From Escherichia coli (lineage in GTDB: Bacteria > Pseudomonadota > Gammaproteobacteria > Enterobacterales > Enterobacteriaceae): a DNA stretch of 17,115 nt. The notes under the pieces were generated by a model. That model had not been told where the DNA came from. It ran no database searches and worked only from the letters and a program-made list of their open reading frames with translations. The DNA lies in assembly GCF_003334765.1 (NCBI RefSeq), contig NZ_QOWT01000052.1, one strand, 5' to 3'. Positions within the stretch are counted from its first letter, which is position 1; every line of letters starts with the position of its first letter. Made by a program: the position numbers and the translations under genes. Shown piece by piece: positions 575 to 15,538 of the stretch.

Positions 575-2023
575 ATGCTAAAGGGCTTTGATATAACAAA
601 AGCAAAAGCACAAGAAGTAGATACAGAACTACTTAAGCGTAGAATTTCCACTGGAAAAGCCATCGCATTCACAGGTGCAGGCTTCTCACTCGGAACAAAA
701 AATGTACTAGGCTCTACCCCCCCAATGGCTGGAGAGCTAGCTAAGAAACTCAGTTTATTATGTAATCTCGAAGAATCTGAAGATTTAATGTTTGCAGCAG
801 ACGTTGCACTTGAGTACGCAGATAATATTTCAGTATTAGACTTACTTAAAGATAATTACACACTAACATCTGTTTCAGAATGTCATGAAAAAATATGTAA
901 ACTACCCTGGAAAAAATTTTTCACAACAAATTATGATAACTCTATAGAACTTGCCTGTCTGAATATAGGTAAACGTATAGAATCAGTTGACTTATCTTAC
1001 AAACCAACAAATTTTTTAAAAAAAAATAATGTTTGCCTTCATATTAATGGAAAAATTGAAAGTGCTGAACCTGAAGATTTAACCTCCAAAATAAAATTAT
1101 CAGATTCATCATACCTGTCTCCAGATTCATTTGTAAATTCTGATTGGTACTATCACTTCAAAAAAGATCTTGAAACCGCAAGTGCTATCGTATTTATGGG
1201 ATACTCCATGTATGATATGGATGTAAAAAAATTCTTGTTCGAAAATCCAGAGTTACAAGAAAAAACTTACTTCGTTGTAAGAGATGGTGCCGATTTTAAA
1301 GAAATATTCACCCTAAGAAAATATGGACATGTTTTGCCAATTGGGGTGGACAGGTTTTCAGATTTAATGAAGGATGTTCAAAAGCAATCACATGAAGATG
1401 GTGTTATCTTCACAGAAACACTAGTCAAATATGAAGTTTTCGACACACAAACAGACTTTAGAGATATTGATAGTGAGCGATTATTTCTTTACGGTGATTA
1501 TGAAATAGAAAAACTCCATGACTCTATCAGAAGAATAGAAACCATTCCGTACTTTATTAAACGCGATATAATTCCTGTTTGTCTTAACAACATTAAAAAT
1601 AATAATAACATTATTATCACTGGCGATCTGGGAAATGGAAAGTCTATAGTTTTAGAAATGTTAGCTTATGAGTTAACTGTAAATGGTTTTCACACATATA
1701 TATTACGAAATAACGATGGTGATTATGTTTCTGATCTTGATCAAATTATCAAACATGAGGGGACGGCCGTAATTATCATTGATAACTGCTCTAATCATCC
1801 GGGTTTGATAAAACATATTTTTGAAGTTAAAGCTGATAACTTAATTTATGTTTTTGCTGACAGAAACTCAAACGACATAAAATTTAATATTTCTCTTGAT
1901 TTTATAGAGCACAATATAGACTTACTATCTAGTGACGAAATCGCAAGCGCAGTAAAAATCATAGATAATTTATCTACATGGCAAAAATTTTCCGCATTAT
2001 CCACTGAGAGAAAAAAAGATTAG
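575..2023 (+). CDS. SIR2-like (SIR2_2-type) domain fused to a P-loop NTPase domain; N-terminal 482-aa segment of a longer frameshifted gene
   Basis: SIR2_2-like motifs: FTGAGFS, TTNYD, LHINGK, VFMGYSMYDMD. Walker A GDLGNGKS and Walker B-like AVIIIDN. RBS GGAG about 8 nt upstream of the ATG. AT-rich codon usage. Confidence 0.7.
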   Translation: MLKGFDITKAKAQEVDTELLKRRISTGKAIAFTGAGFSLGTKNVLGSTPPMAGELAKKLSLLCNLEESEDLMFAADVALEYADNISVLDLLKDNYTLTSVSECHEKICKLPWKKFFTTNYDNSIELACLNIGKRIESVDLSYKPTNFLKKNNVCLHINGKIESAEPEDLTSKIKLSDSSYLSPDSFVNSDWYYHFKKDLETASAIVFMGYSMYDMDVKKFLFENPELQEKTYFVVRDGADFKEIFTLRKYGHVLPIGVDRFSDLMKDVQKQSHEDGVIFTETLVKYEVFDTQTDFRDIDSERLFLYGDYEIEKLHDSIRRIETIPYFIKRDIIPVCLNNIKNNNNIIITGDLGNGKSIVLEMLAYELTVNGFHTYILRNNDGDYVSDLDQIIKHEGTAVIIIDNCSNHPGLIKHIFEVKADNLIYVFADRNSNDIKFNISLDFIEHNIDLLSSDEIASAVKIIDNLSTWQKFSALSTERKKD

Positions 2024-2301
2024 TATATGAAAAATATGACGCACAGCTATCTCTATTGCTTCTGGGATTGATAAATAGTCCAAATATAAAAACAAAAATC
2101 AAACAACAAACCGATTTAATATATTCCAATCCAGATCATAAAAAGAGCGTCTTCTGCATTTGCATTTGTGAAGTCGCTAATGTAGAACCAACATCAAGTT
2201 TAGTATCAGAAATATCAGGAACTAATGCTATTTATCATACATCACTAAGAAACTCCCCCCCCATTCAATCAAATTTTCAAAGTAAATGGAGCAACTATTA
2301 A
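2008..2301 (+). other. Middle fragment of the SIR2/NTPase gene in the +1 frame between two homopolymer frameshifts
   Basis: This frame is open from 2008 immediately after the A7 run (2011..2017) and ends shortly after the C8 run (2255..2262). Confidence 0.4.
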
Positions 2302-3019
2302 ATCAAAATCAAGCATTCTGTCATTATCTTTACTAAACAATACCTTTAGCGATATTTATGTAAGAGATGTACTCCTTGAAATTGTTGAACGTACTGACTC
2401 AATAAAAGACCAGGATATTGAAATAAAAAAAATATTTAAAGCACTATTGAGATTTCATATAGTTGAAAGAATTTTACCGAAGAATCAATCTGCACTAGAC
2501 AGATATTATGAACAGTTAAAATATAGATGCACATGGTTAATGGATAGCCCTCACTATTGGGTTCAATATGCAATGTGTCGACTATCTTTTTCAGATTATA
2601 ATAGAGCACAAAATTACCTAACCAACGCTTATCAAAAAGCAGAAACAAAAAAAGGAAGTTATCATACTGATAACATTGACACTCAACAGGCTCGTCTATA
2701 TTTAAATCAGTGTTTAGATCATAACAACAGTTCTGAGTGTTATAAACTGTTCGATAAAGCACATGCTCTTCTTGTGAAACTCCCCAATGAAGGAAGAAAG
2801 TTTAGACAAGTTCTGTTATATAAAAAAGTTTTTGATTTAAAATACCAAAGTTTCAGTAAAAAAAACAAAACTGATTTTGAACAGGCATGTAAAAAATTAT
2901 TAGATCAGACAAAACCAGATAATGTTTATCCTATAAATACTAATATGGTAAGATTCATCACCTCTGCTGAAGAGGCATTAATTGAAATATTAAACACTAT
3001 TATGCTAGAGCGAACTTAA
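2264..3019 (+). CDS. C-terminal alpha-helical (possibly TPR-like) segment of the SIR2/NTPase gene; the frame is open from 2264 although the ORF caller starts at 2447
   Basis: Same frame as 575..2023, open from just after the C8 run to the stop at 3019, followed by a strong terminator hairpin. Confidence 0.55.
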   Translation, partial: FNQIFKVNGATIKSKSSILSLSLLNNTFSDIYVRDVLLEIVERTDSIKDQDIEIKKIFKALLRFHIVERILPKNQSALDRYYEQLKYRCTWLMDSPHYWVQYAMCRLSFSDYNRAQNYLTNAYQKAETKKGSYHTDNIDTQQARLYLNQCLDHNNSSECYKLFDKAHALLVKLPNEGRKFRQVLLYKKVFDLKYQSFSKKNKTDFEQACKKLLDQTKPDNVYPINTNMVRFITSAEEALIEILNTIMLERT

Positions 3020-6660: not shown

Positions 6661-7239
6661 GGCTTGATATAAACCAGGCAGGCAAGGGATCTGGTTAACA
6701 CCTTTCCTTCCATAAAGTGTTTGAAGATCCAGAGATACGTATCCACAAGCTCCAGCCCTGTACTCAGTGTCCCCGACTGGAAGACCTGCGGTTCAGCTGG
6801 TATTTCCGTTACATCCATGACCGGTGTCTGCGCAGCAGTGCCTGTCATCAGGATATTCATGGAGCCAGTCTGTATGCGCCTCTGGCGTTGAAACAAACAT
6901 ATGAAGTGTATTTCGGATATGACTGTACGCTCAGGAAGTACGGCAGATTCCGTCAAAAATTACCTGTAAAGACAGACTTCAGAAAAAACGGTGCTCGCCG
7001 CAGACCGGTGACCGGGCGAAGCCCGCGAACCGGCGAGGAAGCGCAATGGATCTGTAATCACAGTGAGCAGGTACGCCCTGAAGCCTTCATAATCGGTAGT
7101 GTATGCTGTTTTTCCGGAATGATTTATCCACATATCCAGAGGCCCGATCCAGTAAATAGATCCATGAATGATCAATAAAGGATCCATTAAAGATCCCCAT
7201 ATCGCTACAAACCTTGTCACTCATGGGCCGGGACCACGA

Positions 7240-8478: not shown

Positions 8479-8747
8479 CATAAACTGTAGTCAGTGAAGA
8501 GTGCTCCTTTACTGACTACAGCTTATATTATCAGGTGCAGTGAGTGGTCTGCTCACTGCAGTTTATATTCAGTTTCCTGCAGTGCTGCCTGTGGCTGAGC
8601 TGCCATCTGCCTGTCCCTTACGTGAGTCACCCCGTAACCTGATGCTGAGGCATTTCTCCCTTTATAAAACATGGTTTACTCACTACAGCTTATCTACCTG
8701 CTCCAGCTTATGTTATGTCTGTTCTGCTGACCACTGCTTATATAAGG
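8479..8747. repeat. Iteron-like repeats downstream of repA
   Basis: Repeated ACTACAGCTTAT / CTGCAGTTTATATT / CCACTGCTTATATA motifs in both orientations. Confidence 0.5.
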
Positions 8748-8755
8748 AAGTGCCG

Positions 8756-9496
8756 TTACTTCAGGGGAGGCAGTGTACGCAGGATCTCCGCAGCATCCCG
8801 CCCGTCACCTGTGAAAGGCACTGCCAGCGTGGCAGCCATATCCAGTGCAAACACTCTGGTATAAACCTCCATAGAACGTGGATCCCTGTGACCAGCCAGT
8901 GCCTGGATGACTTTCCGGGGCTGGCGGTGATAGAGCATGTGCATGATATAGCTGTGCCGGAAGGTGTGTGGTGTGACCGGAATCGAAAAGTGCACCCCGT
9001 CAGCTTCGGCCCGCTTCACTGCCTGTTTCAGCCAGTTCCGCATCGTTTCATCCGTCACAGCCCATAACGGTGCACGGCGCCGGGGCCGGGTGGTGATCAT
9101 CCAGCTCTCCATCTGCCTGACATAGCTTATATCCGTCAGCGGGACCAGGCGGACTTCATCTTTTGGAGGGCGCCCGCGTCGCGCACGCACTTTTTCGGAC
9201 AGGATCCGCACAAACGGTCTTACTCCATCCAGGTCAAATGATTCCGGTGTCAGCATCCGGGCTTCGCCAATACGCATTCCGGTATTCCAGAGGGTGGCGA
9301 ACAGCATATGGTGACGCTGATCCGGCATATAGAAAAGAAGGGCACTCACTTCCGGGGCCAGCAGGTAGGCCGGTGTGGCCCCCGTGGAAGTGGCCATTCT
9401 TCTCAGGGAGAGCGCTGTTGCAAAATCCACCCCTGGCGCAATGGGTAACAGGGAGACGCGTTCTGGTGAATTCTGCAGGGGAATGACATTGTTCAT
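8756..9496 (-). CDS. int: Tyrosine site-specific recombinase (phage-integrase family)
   Basis: 246 aa with C-terminal [12 protein letters not shown]...[16 protein letters not shown], matching the R-H-R-Y catalytic region (LGH...Y motif). Confidence 0.8.
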
Positions 9497-9712
9497 GAGT
9501 TATTTTTCACGTAGCACACGCACTGTTTATGGATACAGTTATTCTGACCTGAACGCACGGATCCTTCCACGACAATAAATCGCAGCGCGCGGATCCTTTT
9601 GTTTGCTTATCACGCATTATTGCGGGTAAAACCAAATACGTAAAGGCGCGTTTTGCCGCAGGGATCCTGTCTTAAGCCAGTCATGGCGCGGGCTGAGAGC
9701 TGGTTTGCCGTT

Positions 9713-9858
9713 TTTGGGAGAATTGGGGTAATGCCAGGACAAACAGGATCGAACCAGAAGGGGGAGGGTGCAGAGAAGGAGAGGAAGCGCTACGTGAATT
9801 CTGACCTGGTACACCCCTGTAACCCTGTCTGTTTCCACGTAGCGCAATGCGGTTACTG
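9713..9858 (+). repeat. Repeat A: about 146-bp element, diverged direct copy of repeat B; contains a 10-bp inverted repeat GCGCTACGTG (9787..9796) / CACGTAGCGC (9836..9845)
   Basis: Start TTTGGGAGAATTGGGGTAAT and the core CGCTACGTGAATTCTGACCTGGTACA are near-identical to repeat B. Confidence 0.5.
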
Positions 9859-9859
9859 A

Positions 9860-10109
9860 CTACTGCCAGTTGAGATGACGCCCGGCATCCTGATGCTGAC
9901 TTAAAATACGGATAATAATAATATCTGTATCAGTCTGAATAAAATAAAGCATATGCCGTTCAACGGGCAGTGCGAAGATATCTTCCACCAGTTCAGGCCG
10001 GGGAGTGCCGATATTATTATCACTCATAACCTGAAAAATGCCGGCACCCGTAATACCAGATATCCTCCAGATCCTGACTGGCTTTAGGTGTGAGTTTAAC
10101 GGTTTTCAC
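9860..10109 (-). pseudogene. parE: ParE/RelE-family toxin, apparently frameshifted near 10050..10055
   Basis: GTG start overlaps the parD stop; N-terminal frame reads VKTVKLTPKASQDLEDIWYY.. then stop; a second frame reads ..PELVEDIFALPVERHMLYFIQTDTDIIIIRILSQHQDAGRHL, a ParE-like C-terminus. No ORF of 60 aa or more was called here. Confidence 0.5.
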
Positions 10110-10362
10110 CGGAAGCCCTCGTACCAGCCTTAACTTTTTTCAGGAACGCGTCCTTTTCCCACGCCACAGGTTCGCCGCTGCTCAGGCCTTCTGCCAGTAA
10201 ATCCCGCAGGGCCTGGAGACGTGACTCTGCCTGTTTCTCGCGCAGGAGACGAAGTGACTCGCGAATCACTTCACTCTGAGTACGATAATCACCTGATTCT
10301 ATGAGAGATTCAATGAATTCACGGAGTTCATCTCCGAGATCCACTGTCATTGTTCTGGCCAT
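10096..10362 (-). CDS. parD: ParD-family (ribbon-helix-helix) antitoxin
   Basis: 88 aa, MARTMTVDLGDELREFIESLIESGDYRTQSEVIRESLRLLREKQ...; RBS GAGG upstream; operon with the downstream toxin. Confidence 0.75.
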   Translation of the reverse strand: MARTMTVDLGDELREFIESLIESGDYRTQSEVIRESLRLLREKQAESRLQALRDLLAEGLSSGEPVAWEKDAFLKKVKAGTRASGENR

Positions 10363-10376
10363 ATTAAAGCCTCAAT

Positions 10377-10399
10377 ATTGTAAGTTTAAATCTTACAAT
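10377..10399. promoter_or_regulatory. Palindromic putative operator ATTGTAAG-N7-CTTACAAT, 15 bp upstream of the parD start
   Basis: 8-bp inverted arms around an AT-rich spacer, overlapping a candidate -10 on the minus strand. Confidence 0.45.
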
Positions 10400-10439
10400 C
10401 AGTTTATTCGATACTCAAGGGCGAGTCCAGTACTGAACA

Positions 10440-10577
10440 TTTGGGAGAAATGGGGTAATACCCAAGATAGACCAAAAAGGGAAGGGAGAAGTAAAGAAGA
10501 AGGTTCGCTACGTAAATTCTGACTTGGTACAAACCTCTATAAAAAAGAAATTTTTCATGTAACACATTTGGGTACTG
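10440..10577 (+). repeat. Repeat B: about 138-bp diverged copy of repeat A, flanked by direct 9-bp CCCAGTACT (10427..10435 and 10592..10600)
   Basis: Alignable to repeat A over its whole length at roughly three-quarters identity by eye. Confidence 0.5.
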
Positions 10578-10641: not shown

Positions 10642-12579
10642 TTAAAATAAATTATCTAATCCGAGCAAACTTTCTTTTTCCTTTTTTATCATGTTGAGAT
10701 GATTTAGTGATTTTAAATAAATATAATTATACATATCTTCAACCAAGTTTTCTAATACTAGGAAAACCCTGTTTTTTACACCTGCCTGTGTTAATAATTT
10801 ATCTATAAGCATACTGTTTTTATCGTTTATGATTCCATCAGATTTTATTTTATCGAGGCCTGAAATTATCTTTAAACATGAAGGTGTCGTAATTGCATTG
10901 TCAAAAATAATGTCATGCAAAGAGTATGTTGATAATTTTTCTATATCAGAGAAGGCGAGGACATTCAGAATGTTATCATTAAATGGACCGATTGATACAT
11001 CGTGCATAGATTCAAGTTTATTGTTATTTGATTTTCTATCTTTACGTAGTTCTTTATTTTGAACAATAACTCTCGCATCACCGATTAGTTTATAATAGAA
11101 ATTTTCAGCTAATGTGCTCGCTGAAAAATTCTCTTCTTTAAAACCAATCTCTTGCATTAACGGAATGATTAACTCTTCCGTTGTATTTTCCATGTCTATG
11201 TGGTTTAAAAAAACCGCAGTATTCAGCATAATAGAGTTATTTTTTAGTTCCTTTACCAAACTCAGCAATATCTTACTTTTTATACTAGATGCGCTGTTTT
11301 TAATGAATTCAGCCGCATGATACTCTTGAATTGTTTTATGGACAAATGTAAATATTTCGGCGCCATCTCTTCTGATCAAACCTGTGACATCGATATAGTC
11401 ATTAATAAGATCTTCGGCAAAAGTATCAGAATAATTGAGCCCCAAAACTTTAAATGATTTTTTAGTGATATTTTTTAAGTTATCCCATGATAATTGGGAT
11501 GAACTTTTTAGCGATATGTAACATAAAGCACAAAATATTTCTTTTGATTCACTAATTGAGAGGTTTGTTTTTCTATGCCTTTTATAGAAATTTTTTGTTT
11601 TATCATGGCCTTCAAATAGTATATTAAATATTCTATTGTAAAATTCTCTTGCATTTTTAGGCATTGAATCGAGATGCTTTTCACAAACACAAAGCAGTAC
11701 AGCAAGAATTGGAGTATTAATTGAAGAAAGCAATTGTTTATTTTTCTTAAGCGCTGCTATAAGTTGATCAGCTGACTCCTTTGGTAAAAAATTACCTATT
11801 ATGGAAAAAACATCTTTCTCTGTTAGTGGTTCAACATGATAATTATTTATTCCTGCAGTAGTGCATATTTCTGTTCCAGGCCGAGACGTTGATATTAATT
11901 GAGTCTGAAAAGAATCATTTAAATGCAATATTTCTTTTAAAATAGTTTCTCTAATATCAGGGGATATTTCATCAAAACCATCTAGTAGTAATATAATTTT
12001 TTTACTTTTCAGTAACCCCTTTAGGTCAGCATTAGTGCAGTTTAATTCGAGAGTAGTTAATGTTTTTATTAAACTATCTTGTATTGAATTGTTTTCCAAG
12101 TTTCTAAGATCAAAAAAGAATGGTATTTTATTAATTTTTGAATTATTACTTAAAATAGCTAGGAATATTTTTCTTAAAATTGTTGTTTTCCCTTGTCCAG
12201 CAGCGCCAATTATATTTAATATATTTTCATTTTGAATACAAAAATCATTATTAATTAAAAGGTCTTCATTTGTACGGTTGTTTTTTACCGTGAGTGGATG
12301 ATAAAATTCATCTATAAAAGCATCATCATTTAAATTATATAAAGTTCTTACTGACAAGTATCTTTTAATACATAAATCAAAATAATGAGTGAAAGTATCT
12401 TTCTTCAATATTTGTTCAATAAGTACTTTCGCATTATCAGTTCCATGTTTCCACTTTTGTGAAACTACTGAATTTAACAATTCGTAAGTTGATTTTGTTA
12501 AAGATTCACTAAAAGTTTCTACCATTTTATTGGTGGCCACAATACCCAGTGCAGCAGCAGATATTGTTAACGGTTCCAT
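10642..12579 (-). CDS. NACHT-domain NTPase (bacterial NACHT / STAND family), 645 aa
   Basis: Walker A GAAGQGKTT; NACHT-type Walker B ILLLDGFDE; sensor-1 ISTSRP; RBS AAGGAG 6 nt upstream of the ATG; AT-rich. Confidence 0.85.
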   Translation of the reverse strand: MEPLTISAAALGIVATNKMVETFSESLTKSTYELLNSVVSQKWKHGTDNAKVLIEQILKKDTFTHYFDLCIKRYLSVRTLYNLNDDAFIDEFYHPLTVKNNRTNEDLLINNDFCIQNENILNIIGAAGQGKTTILRKIFLAILSNNSKINKIPFFFDLRNLENNSIQDSLIKTLTTLELNCTNADLKGLLKSKKIILLLDGFDEISPDIRETILKEILHLNDSFQTQLISTSRPGTEICTTAGINNYHVEPLTEKDVFSIIGNFLPKESADQLIAALKKNKQLLSSINTPILAVLLCVCEKHLDSMPKNAREFYNRIFNILFEGHDKTKNFYKRHRKTNLSISESKEIFCALCYISLKSSSQLSWDNLKNITKKSFKVLGLNYSDTFAEDLINDYIDVTGLIRRDGAEIFTFVHKTIQEYHAAEFIKNSASSIKSKILLSLVKELKNNSIMLNTAVFLNHIDMENTTEELIIPLMQEIGFKEENFSASTLAENFYYKLIGDARVIVQNKELRKDRKSNNNKLESMHDVSIGPFNDNILNVLAFSDIEKLSTYSLHDIIFDNAITTPSCLKIISGLDKIKSDGIINDKNSMLIDKLLTQAGVKNRVFLVLENLVEDMYNYIYLKSLNHLNMIKKEKESLLGLDNLF

Positions 12580-13611: not shown

Positions 13612-14658
13612 ATGATAACGTTTTCTATGGATGAAAGTGGCTATACGGGTTATGACTTACTCCACAAAGAGCAAAAATTCCAAGGCGCGTCATCAATATT
13701 AATAAACCATGATGACGCCAGTCGTCTGATAAAAGAATATTTCCCCAAACTTCAAGCCGATGAATTGAAGTACAGCTCGCTGAAAAGAAGAGATTCCAAC
13801 CGCAAGCCATTATTTGAATTGCAAAAGCATCTCTTATCTAATTACCCATGTATAACATGCGTAGGTGATAAACGCTTTTTACTAATTCTTATGTTCATCG
13901 ATTATGCTGTTGAACCATTCTATTATGATTTTGGGATTAATCTTTATGAGGATGGCGGTAACTTCTCAATGGCATCAATGGTGTATTACGTTGGACCAGC
14001 GTATTATGGCTCTGCCTTTGATGATGTTCTGCTTCAGTTTCAAAATGCTATGAAAGAAAAAACATTAGATTCAGTGAGTTTGCTAATAAGCAAAATAAGG
14101 AGGCTTGACTGGCAAAGGTTAAAAGAGTTTTTTGGTCCTTTGGCATTTAACCACCCAGATTGTATTGATGCCATCATGACTGATGGAATTAGCACTGATG
14201 CCTCATTTACTATTTTAAATGCATTAATTTCTCGCACGGAAATGATGTCCTCTGGAGAGTATGCAATTGAGCATGATCGTTCTAAAAATCTGCTAACTTA
14301 CAATGAACGCCTTAACTTTTTGATCAATTGTGATAAGGAAGGAGAGTTTAAACATTCCGAGATAGCAACTATCTCATTCCCACTAAACCTTAAAAAAGTC
14401 TATCAAATTGATTCGAAAGAAAGCCCAAGCGTGCAATTGTGTGATGTTCTTATAGGTGCATGTATTGAATCAGTTTATCAATTAATGGACTCTAAGGTAC
14501 TCAATCAAAATTCCGTTCTTTCACTTTACCAAGATAGCCAGTTAATACATTTCATACCTGATATAGATTTTGAAGGACAGAAAAAATTTAGGAAAGGCAG
14601 TCAAAGTGAGGAGTATCTTACGTTTATTCAAAATGAAATCTACTCTAGTAAACTTTAA
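13612..14658 (+). CDS. DUF3800-like protein (uncharacterised), 348 aa
   Basis: N-terminal FSMDESGYTG (DESG motif) and C-terminal VQLCDVLIGA (QxxD-like motif), as recalled for DUF3800; RBS GGAG; AT-rich. Confidence 0.6.
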   Translation: MITFSMDESGYTGYDLLHKEQKFQGASSILINHDDASRLIKEYFPKLQADELKYSSLKRRDSNRKPLFELQKHLLSNYPCITCVGDKRFLLILMFIDYAVEPFYYDFGINLYEDGGNFSMASMVYYVGPAYYGSAFDDVLLQFQNAMKEKTLDSVSLLISKIRRLDWQRLKEFFGPLAFNHPDCIDAIMTDGISTDASFTILNALISRTEMMSSGEYAIEHDRSKNLLTYNERLNFLINCDKEGEFKHSEIATISFPLNLKKVYQIDSKESPSVQLCDVLIGACIESVYQLMDSKVLNQNSVLSLYQDSQLIHFIPDIDFEGQKKFRKGSQSEEYLTFIQNEIYSSKL

Positions 14659-14663
14659 AAAAA

Positions 14664-14684
14664 GGCTCTGAAAATCAGAACCTT
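14664..14684. terminator. Imperfect hairpin between the convergent genes (possible bidirectional terminator)
   Basis: GGCTCTGA-AAA-TCAGAACC stem with one mismatch, A-run upstream. Confidence 0.3.
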
Positions 14685-14893
14685 ATCGCACCACCAGACA
14701 TAGAAATGATTCGTGAAGCTATTTTATACAGAACCAAAAACACAAAGGCCAAAACAGTCATGATATCTAATACCATAGGCATTACCTCCACTAACGTATT
14801 CAAGACAAACGCTTTATACCCGCATCAGTCCGTAGACAGGCATCTGTTCGTCAGTTTGTGGATTTCTATGGGTGGTGAGACCGGGTAGAGACA

Positions 14894-15538
14894 TCATACC
14901 TGTTTTCTTAGAAGCTGGTCAATATAGCTGATCGTGTGAAATTCACGTTCGATTTTCATACAAACATTTGGCAACTGTTCGATAAGAAAGTTTTCATCGA
15001 AGCGATCTAGAAGGTACGTGAGGGTAATAGTATCAATTTTATTCAATTTTCTATGTAAAACTGAAGAACGCCTCACAAAATCGTTTTTCCTTAACTCTTG
15101 AATAACATCGATCAAAATAGGGTTGAATAATTCTTTTTCTGGAAAGGACTTGTAAATTTTCGAATCAATAATTTGAGAAGGATCTAAGCGGTTAATTAAA
15201 TTATTACTGCTAACTATGTAGCACTTATCAATCATCAAACCTTCCGTTTTGCAACGGTCTAAATCACAAGCGTTTATTATACATTCTTTAAATACAACAT
15301 GTCGCAGGCTCCCGCCTCTAAAAAGGACTCCTCTTAATAAAGAGGATTGGAAAAGACTGCCAGTAAAGTTACACCATTTCAATGAAGCACCAATAAAAGA
15401 CGTGTTCGTGAATTTTGACTGAAAAAAATTTGAATGGTAACTGTGTGTCTTATTGAAATTTTTATTTATAAAATTCCTACTCGCAACATCACGATTATTG
15501 TAGCTGAAAGCATTTTTGCTCTTCTTATTCCTTGCCAT
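14894..15538 (-). CDS. Pentapeptide-repeat protein: N-terminal pentapeptide-repeat region plus a C-terminal domain of unknown function, 214 aa
   Basis: Residues about 20..95 show a 5-residue periodicity (RNFIN KNFNK .. SNFFQ SKFTN TSFIG ASLKW CNFTG SLFQS SLLRG VLFRG GSLRH VVFKE) with F/L at the centre position. Confidence 0.6.
   Translation of the reverse strand: MARNKKSKNAFSYNNRDVASRNFINKNFNKTHSYHSNFFQSKFTNTSFIGASLKWCNFTGSLFQSSLLRGVLFRGGSLRHVVFKECIINACDLDRCKTEGLMIDKCYIVSSNNLINRLDPSQIIDSKIYKSFPEKELFNPILIDVIQELRKNDFVRRSSVLHRKLNKIDTITLTYLLDRFDENFLIEQLPNVCMKIEREFHTISYIDQLLRKQV

Follow-up and report, generated by a model that had tools for sequence, protein, structure and literature searches.

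ResD of plasmid F acts at the rfsF site (PMC4398462), and this protein, the F D protein, is reported to be both a repressor and a resolvase (Lane et al. 1986, by its title, which PMC5587640 cites). F also carries a second recombinase, a tyrosine recombinase paralogous to ResD and linked to RepFIB, and the subject of this text is the region upstream of its gene, int (8756..9496, minus strand, 246 amino acids), in a stretch of 17,115 nucleotides of Escherichia coli DNA (NCBI RefSeq assembly GCF_003334765.1, contig NZ_QOWT01000052.1; hereafter the window), where short GGATCC-containing direct repeats, called boxes below, are found. In Tn4430, the IRS site of the recombinase TnpI comprises core inverted repeats and accessory direct repeats, both bound by the same tyrosine recombinase. 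In the Salmonella virulence plasmid, the crs site reportedly lies upstream of rsd and, as Krause and Guiney are said to have described in 1991, consists of direct imperfect repeats, 17-bp units in eight copies, together with an rfsF-like segment. In the case of promoters controlled by Dam methylation, GATCs in an operator downstream of the agn43 start site decide the binding of the repressor OxyR, and the promoter region of P1 cre, the gene of a related plasmid dimer-resolution recombinase, is reportedly regulated by Dam, a finding attributed to Sternberg et al. in 1986.

The boxes upstream of int are an uncharacterised instance of such a familiar element, namely promoter-flanking operator or Dam-site boxes at a plasmid recombinase gene. 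They are conserved, turn over between lineages, surround a promoter-like site, resemble the arms of rfsF and are not a crossover core. We tentatively favour reading them as operator-like sites that bracket the int promoter, with Int as the most likely binder and with an occupancy sensitive to Dam. What emerges is a conserved promoter with four positions for boxes, two of which clearly form an ancestral pair, and, apart from these, a cassette-junction block. A literature search located no study on the function, target site or regulation of the RepFIB-linked int, which is extremely widespread yet unstudied, and the role and control of this second recombinase of F can now be reduced to a few direct experiments. 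Should the boxes prove to be ordinary autoregulatory or Dam sites, the outcome would be a useful annotation and nothing beyond.

GGATCC boxes and the promoter of int

An earlier note on this DNA had pointed to three GGATCC repeats upstream of int as possible recombinase or regulator binding sites, or chance, and all three are present exactly where it placed them, with GCACGGATCCTT at 9555-9566, GCGCGGATCCTT at 9587-9598 and GGGATCCTG at 9661-9669. The 20-bp gap between the first two was borne out, and so was their location upstream of int, which runs on the minus strand and codes for a tyrosine recombinase. A repeat search gathers them into one 13-nt family (CGCNNGGATCCTK), whose members CGCACGGATCCTT (9554-66), CGCGCGGATCCTT (9586-98) and CGCAGGGATCCTG (9657-69) follow one another at start-to-start distances of 32 and 71 bp. 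Read in the sense of int, the unit of the boxes is AGGATCC, and its orientation is identical in all copies. Box 1 (9554..9566, minus strand; GGAAGGATCCGTGCG / GGAAGGATCCGTGC in int sense) has its GGATCC at 9559-9564, box 2 (9586..9598, minus strand; AAAAGGATCCGCGCGC / AAAAGGATCCGCGC) at 9591-9596, and the lineage-specific box 3 (9657..9669, minus strand; ACAGGATCCCTGC) at 9662-9667, that is, at about +46 to +51, +14 to +19 and -58 to -53, respectively, relative to the inferred start of int transcription. Each box contains a GATC, the Dam site, which the earlier note did not mention; nor did it include a fourth, ancestral box that has been lost in E. coli plasmids. The position of this fourth box (9645..9650, minus strand, about -41 to -36) is occupied by AAAAGGATCCTTTAC in other lineages and is degenerate here, reading CGCGCC.

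A consensus scan predicts a sigma-70 promoter of int at 9616..9644 (minus strand), with the -35 hexamer TTTACG (9644..9639), a 17-nt spacer and the -10 hexamer AATAAT (9621..9616). This promoter-like site sits between boxes 3 and 2 and is directed toward int; transcription would start near 9609, and the int ATG would then stand at about +114. The predicted leader of about 113 nt (9497..9609, minus strand) holds boxes 1 and 2 together with an invariant GCGATTTATTG (9583..9573) and the motif G(T/C)GCTACGTGAAAA (9517..9504). Counted from the inferred start, the GATCs lie at about -57, +15 and +47, and at -40 in other lineages, none of them within the -10 or -35 hexamers.

Conservation was followed in an alignment of 14 lineages, which includes E. 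coli, F, Salmonella, Klebsiella, Citrobacter, Mixta, Enterobacter and Erwinia persicina (Int 80% identical), and in metagenomic sequences. A plasmid protein search was dominated by near-identical copies, and the deeper lineages come from genome and metagenome scans; metagenome contigs were scanned only with the leader pattern GCGATTTATTG...GCTACGTGAAAA, thus avoiding selection on the boxes themselves, which gave 118 usable loci and 93 distinct sequences. As a neutral benchmark, int of the window shares 45-55% of its third codon positions with int of Klebsiella, E. soli or Erwinia. Among enterobacterial lineages, the promoter segment is 86-100% identical (63% in Erwinia) and the leader 83-87%, and the promoter segment is nearly invariant in the 93 metagenomic variants. 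Because the identity of promoter and leader (83-97%) far exceeds that of the third codon positions, the region is under strong constraint.

Within this region the individual boxes behave differently. The GGATCC of box 2 is present in all 14 lineages, including Erwinia persicina with its differing flanks, and in the 93 metagenomic sequences its G-G-A-T-C is 100% conserved and its final C more than 90%. In box 1, AGGATC is kept in 12 of the 14 lineages and in about 90 of the 93 metagenomic variants, the last C varying (C/G/A), and the box is absent from Erwinia-like lineages. Box 3 is a perfect GGATCC only in E. coli-type sequences; Klebsiella/Citrobacter show GGATCT or AGATCT in its place, and Enterobacter sp. 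10-1, E. soli and Erwinia lack the box altogether. The segment around it (9669-9639) reaches no more than 52-74% identity between lineages. Thus, conservation in related plasmids, by which the earlier note proposed to check the repeats, holds for box 2, largely holds for box 1, and for box 3 extends only over the E. coli/Klebsiella lineages.

The fourth position supplies the missing part of the pattern. A GGATCC abuts the -35 hexamer in 9 of the 14 lineages and a CGATCC in 1 further, while the four E. coli-type sequences (the window, F, pYT2 and pE47) have lost this -35 box and carry CGCGCC or CATACC in its place. Wherever both occur, the -35 box and box 2 fall in the same alignment columns, 54 bp apart, with box 1 located 32 bp from box 2. 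The three deepest metagenomic lineages, which are 54-60% identical to the window, have exactly two GGATCC, the -35 box and box 2; Klebsiella-type sequences have GGATCC at the same two positions and, at boxes 1 and 3, a GATC with variable outer bases; and at least 60 E. coli-type sequences without the -35 box carry GGATCC in each of boxes 3, 2 and 1. Judged from these alignments, the -35 box and box 2 are the ancestral pair, box 3 of E. coli apparently stands in for the lost -35 box, constraint in the weaker boxes is strongest on the central GATC, and the overall pattern is one of functional sites turning over, not of chance repeats.

Chance had been one of the options left by the earlier note, and in its strict form, repeats without function inside a conserved leader, it is now very unlikely. 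Taken alone, the repetition of the boxes is not beyond chance, because Markov shuffles of the 17 kb yield at least 3 copies of some 7-mer within 119 bp about 2.1 times per sequence (at least one such cluster in 87%), so that 7-mer clusters of this kind are expected at random. Moreover, the entire promoter and leader are conserved, and hence any hexamer within them would be as well, box 3 lies in a fast-evolving segment, and a GGATCC copy in the int coding sequence at 9202 is E. coli-specific. In the window, GGATCC is observed 8 times for 3.2 expected, a count reached in 5 of 200 shuffles, and GGATCCT is confined to the three box sites. Against the chance reading, the deepest lineages keep both ancestral GGATCC at 54-60% identity, where about 0.03 per hexamer would be expected, the gain of a perfect box coincides with the loss of the -35 box, and the GATCC motif is invariant in the sites of the paralog too. 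For boxes 2 and 1, chance is excluded because their conservation is far above the neutral rate; a role as binding sites, the other option of the earlier note, is partly supported, as it fits their position around the conserved promoter and their likeness to the invariant part of the rfsF arms.

Other causes of the conservation were also considered and rejected. The RefSeq annotation places a 60-amino-acid 'hypothetical protein' at 9617..9799 (minus strand), overlapping box 3 and the int promoter, but this open reading frame is interrupted by stops in 7 of the 14 lineages, which dismisses a coding cause, and it is very likely not a gene. An RNA helix between box 2 and box 1 in the leader, formed by GGAUCC pairing, has a fold z of -1.6, which is not significant, and every departure from the sequence breaks pairs with zero compensation. 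A search against Rfam gave no match, and no RNA structure was supported in the leader.

What may occupy the boxes

Among the closest described systems is ResD/rfsF of the F RepFIA region. The window has a ResD-family recombinase gene near the boxes, since Int and F ResD share 47% identity (E = 1e-66, with the alignment extending over the entire protein), and Int is 99% identical to the RepFIB-adjacent Int of F. Its translation shows the R...HxxR...Y catalytic motifs (RIGEA, HTFRHSY and EVYTRV), and NCBIfam Xer and integron-integrase models match residues 40-222 with E = 1e-15 to 1e-9, under the equivalog cut-offs. RepFIB repA lies at one side of int and the boxes at the other, with the pair of parD and frameshifted parE further upstream, and the order parD-parE-int parallels ccdA-ccdB-resD of F, so that both systems share a toxin-antitoxin-recombinase order as well as paralogous recombinases.

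The target of ResD was examined in the F oriV1 region, where rfsF reads AGATCCGAAA-ACCCCAAG-TTACGGATCT and its first base is F nt 45922, the very position at which the homology of pEC958 RepFIA to F starts (PMC4398462). When the rfsF region was compared with plasmids by blast, homology broke off exactly at the edges of the arms and in the spacer, and two records had only the 28 bp; this match of breakpoints to arm edges and spacer confirms the site. Among seven diverged rfsF copies only AGATCCG...(C)GGATCT is invariant. All seven of these loci also contain a solitary TCGGATC with variable flanks, +213 to +216 from the rfsF start (about F nt 46136), so ResD-family loci hold conserved solitary copies of the arm motif, and this one may be an accessory ResD site. 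To our knowledge, the solitary TCGGATC near rfsF has no prior description.

Boxes and rfsF arms have GATCC(G) in common, and the ResD loci carry a further conserved, solitary copy of the motif outside their core. In boxes 1 and 2 the sequence is GGATCCG, which agrees with the rfsF-arm AGATCCG at 6/7 positions, a statistically weak match, and box 1 with its flank (GGAAGGATCCGT) is one inserted G apart from the right arm of F (GGAAGATCCGT). At the level of sequence this likeness is suggestive, not statistically strong. On the other hand, rfsF is built of inverted arms in a 10-8-10 layout and homology breaks there, whereas the boxes are direct repeats 32-71 bp apart around a promoter and are not breakpoints; the boxes have a G before GATC where the rfsF arms have an A; and int has its own promoter and 113-nt leader, not being translationally coupled to a toxin gene.

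Int is considered the most likely binder because the boxes always accompany int, the sites of the paralog share GATCC(G), solitary copies included, and the D protein has been reported to be a repressor. In the favoured arrangement, the ancestral pair would consist of the box abutting the -35 hexamer and box 2 (+14 to +19), 54 bp apart, with box 1 located 32 bp downstream, and in E. coli plasmids, where the -35 box is lost, a perfect box 3 at about -55 would stand in its place. On the model of ResD, the D protein of F, Int bound at boxes flanking its promoter would repress int, and Int bound to the boxes might also build an accessory nucleoprotein structure beside its recombination site. Since there is a GATC in each box, occupancy is probably affected by the Dam state, and this would tie the expression or activity of int to the passage of the replication fork. 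Control by an Int operator and control by Dam are compatible, as a methylation-sensitive Int operator would couple the supply of resolvase to replication.

Two systems serve as further comparisons for the boxes as recombinase-bound repeats. The Rsd/crs system (pSDL2, pSLT) likewise involves a ResD-family resolvase, and the direct repeats reportedly found beside its gene would be a precedent for the boxes; unlike crs, the GGATCC boxes have no accompanying rfsF-like inverted segment. TnpI/IRS offers a working analogy, in which a short tyrosine recombinase has extra direct copies of a motif beside the core that control the reaction, but a core of the same motif was not found for Int, and the two systems are unrelated in sequence.

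The main rival explanation dispenses with Int binding: a cluster of GATCs at the int promoter would, through Dam methylation and SeqA alone, time int to replication, and the methylation state would be read by RNA polymerase, SeqA or a methylation-sensitive host regulator. This is possible, though on balance unlikely. SeqA binds hemimethylated GATC (PMC12707154), and there is a GATC in each box. All 93 metagenomic variants have 3-4 GATCs per about 194 bp, as opposed to 0.76 expected, despite the turnover of boxes. Substitutions in box 1, box 3 and the -35 box fall mainly at hexamer positions 1 and 6, leaving GATC intact, and the additional GATCs of Erwinia sit in unrelated flanks. The 32-bp distance from box 1 to box 2 corresponds to about three helical turns, and the nearby RepFIB origin has a P1-like array of five GATCs 11-13 bp apart. 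The locus is also similar to Dam-controlled promoters (IS10 pIN, agn43/OxyR and, reportedly, P1 cre) in having GATCs near or just downstream of the promoter. However, the entire GGATCC, usually AAAGGATCC, is invariant at the two ancestral boxes over very deep divergence, which exceeds what Dam and SeqA need and differs from those promoters, and neither the -10 nor the -35 hexamer contains a GATC. Moreover, the rfsF arms, a recombinase site, hold an invariant GATC inside a longer invariant heptamer, so that a GATC is compatible with recombinase binding.

A second rival holds that another dimeric regulator, encoded by host or plasmid, recognises the palindrome (A)AGGATCC(TT), with Int and Dam irrelevant. 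Outside E. coli the -35 box is a perfect 12-bp palindrome, AAAGGATCCTTT, the asymmetry of the flanks flips among lineages while GGATCC stays, and looping repressors typically have sites that flank a promoter. We consider this regulator less probable still, since no candidate gene travels with the module: repA and int are the only genes linked to it in every case. The iteron-like repeats of RepA at 8503-8746, with the core CTGACYACAGCTTATAT, were considered as relatives of the boxes and are unrelated to AGGATCC. ParD was likewise rejected as the binder, its operator palindrome at about 10375-10400 being unrelated, and F retains the boxes without an adjacent parDE. A host factor would have to be conserved throughout the range from E. 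coli to Erwinia-like lineages.

Several observations weigh against the Int operator that we prefer. Int is a presumed ligand of the boxes, and the int promoter is a consensus prediction only. The hexamer GGATCC is palindromic, and the asymmetry of its flanks is reversed in Erwinia-like lineages, which fits a symmetric dimeric regulator or Dam better than the half-site of a monomer. The weaker boxes keep the central GATC and vary at positions 1 and 6, as expected if it is the GATC that matters, and the resemblance to the rfsF arms has the statistical weakness given above. The solitary box at the ResD loci lies about 140 bp upstream of the ccd promoter and is for this reason not an operator. Finally, the sole candidate crossover element found, a 26-nt block described below, does not resemble the boxes; should Int act at this block, its core half-sites would be unlike AGGATCC.

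The crossover question and the junction block

As the boxes adjoin a ResD-type recombinase gene and resemble rfsF arms, they could be part of the crossover core of Int, an equivalent of rfsF or lox that resolves plasmid dimers. This explanation was already disfavoured and is highly improbable. The boxes are in direct orientation throughout, 32 and 71 bp apart, with no inverted partner, and no inverted GGATCC-type pair with a gap of 6-8 (or 10-18) bp occurs near int in 13 loci. A search of the window and 12 related loci for inverted [AG]GATCC-N10-18-GGATC[CT] pairs returned only the rfsF of F and the GATC array of the RepFIB origin. Among thousands of plasmids, homology breaks at about 9738-9741 and not at the boxes. 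One break near box 1, seen as a match covering only 9537-9740, proved to be an IS600 insertion and not a recombination product. Of the recombinase-site reading given in the earlier note, the crossover site thus falls away.

The homology breaks coincide with a 26-nt junction block (proximal copy 9713..9738, minus strand; CCTGGCATTACCCCAATTCTCCCAAA / CCTGGCATTACCCCAWTTCTCCCAAA in int sense), which forms the distal edge of the conserved int module. In the metagenomic set, conservation jumps from about 0.6 to more than 0.9 exactly at 9739/9738, and the block itself is nearly invariant. At least 15 blast-distinct distal contexts are joined at the block among 100 metagenomic loci. A distal copy (10440..10465, minus strand) lies upstream of parD, with blast breakpoints at the block edge there too, and these two copies in the window compare with none expected. 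They belong to a longer direct repeat, 9713-9821 and 10440-10539, of 75-91% identity, both copies of which end at ...ATTACCCCAWTTCTCCCAAA. The plasmids pE47 and p15648-3 differ by a 775-bp segment comprising parDE and a hairpin, lying precisely between two copies of the block. The centre of the block, ACCCCAA, equals the rfsF spacer of F, while the block as a whole shows no clear dyad symmetry and does not look like the boxes. Read from these comparisons, the block is a better candidate recombination site than the boxes, and action of Int at the block is a candidate idea only.

Between the two block copies lies the parDE cassette (9860..10362, minus strand; RefSeq annotation and list of open reading frames), made up of parD (10096..10362, minus strand; RefSeq annotation of an identical plasmid and list of open reading frames) and a frameshifted parE (9860-10109). 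With parD intact, the antitoxin is kept without a functional toxin. At the 3' end of the cassette, next to the parE remnant, a 59-nt imperfect palindrome (9787..9845, minus strand; GCGCTACGTGAA...TTCCACGTAGCGC) forms a hairpin with an RNA fold of -30.6 kcal/mol (z = -3.4) and compensatory double changes in four pairs over 9 lineages. It could be a terminator, an mRNA-end hairpin or an attC-like folded site. As a candidate motif common to ResD loci, GCGCTACGTGAA was rejected, being absent from those loci. A third copy of the hairpin arm, G(T/C)GCTACGTGAAAA in int sense, stands at 9504-9517, 8-20 nt ahead of the int ATG. All lineages, Erwinia-like ones among them, keep it without variation, and no obvious Shine-Dalgarno sequence was seen there.

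Block and hairpin, but not the boxes, are similar to the attI/attC sites of integrons, in that a tyrosine recombinase gene has a sharply bounded variable region upstream, and the parDE cassette is bracketed by short-site repeats with an imperfect-palindrome hairpin at its 3' end. However, Int is not IntI, scoring 50.8 bits in the NCBIfam integron-integrase model against a cut-off of 265; furthermore, a single cassette type was seen, the block is unlike attI or attC, and the genes are co-oriented with int. A broader proposal, speculative and quite improbable, is that the region upstream of int is an undescribed two-part platform, in which the 26-nt block would be the crossover site for Int and the AGGATCC boxes would be accessory and repressing, their GATCs responding to hemimethylation. 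On such a platform, parDE-type modules with a covarying 3' hairpin would be inserted, excised or swapped at the block, much as happens at rfsF or at the attI site of an integron. Were recombination truly to take place at the block, this would help to account for the mosaic structure beside RepFIB in virulence and resistance plasmids.

Plasmid setting and neighbouring sites

The window belongs to an IncF plasmid, with 2 kb at 100% identity to the E. coli plasmids CP088797 and NZ_OZ547039. Of 5426 complete E. coli genomes, 3174 contain related DNA, as do at least 5000 plasmid records, and relatives of int also occur on plasmids of Klebsiella, Salmonella, Citrobacter and Enterobacter.

Further Dam sites and GGATCC copies lie outside the boxes. 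At the RepFIB origin (7144-7196), the five GATCs, at 11-13-bp spacing, read CGATCCA, AGATCCA, TGATCAA, GGATCCA and AGATCCC, and two of them form AGATCC-N16-GGATCC, the geometry of rfsF, an arrangement that probably follows from the Dam sites being phased at 11 bp. Within int, besides the E. coli-specific GGATCC at 9202, a GGATCC at 8880 falls in the H-R-D-P-R codons (8876-8887), where Klebsiella-type lineages have a 12-mer, AAGGATCCGCGC, that matches box 2 exactly. Asp is encoded there by GAT in 13 of 14 lineages; the site is mostly explained by K/R-D-P-R coding and could be an internal site.

Further from int, the RefSeq annotation of the identical plasmid places defence-type genes at 575-3000, 10642-12579 and 13612-15538, with insertion sequence remnants between them. 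These encode a SIR2 family protein, an nSTAND3 NTPase, a NACHT protein, a DUF3800 protein and a pentapeptide repeat protein, and the flanks look like a defence island adjoining RepFIB.

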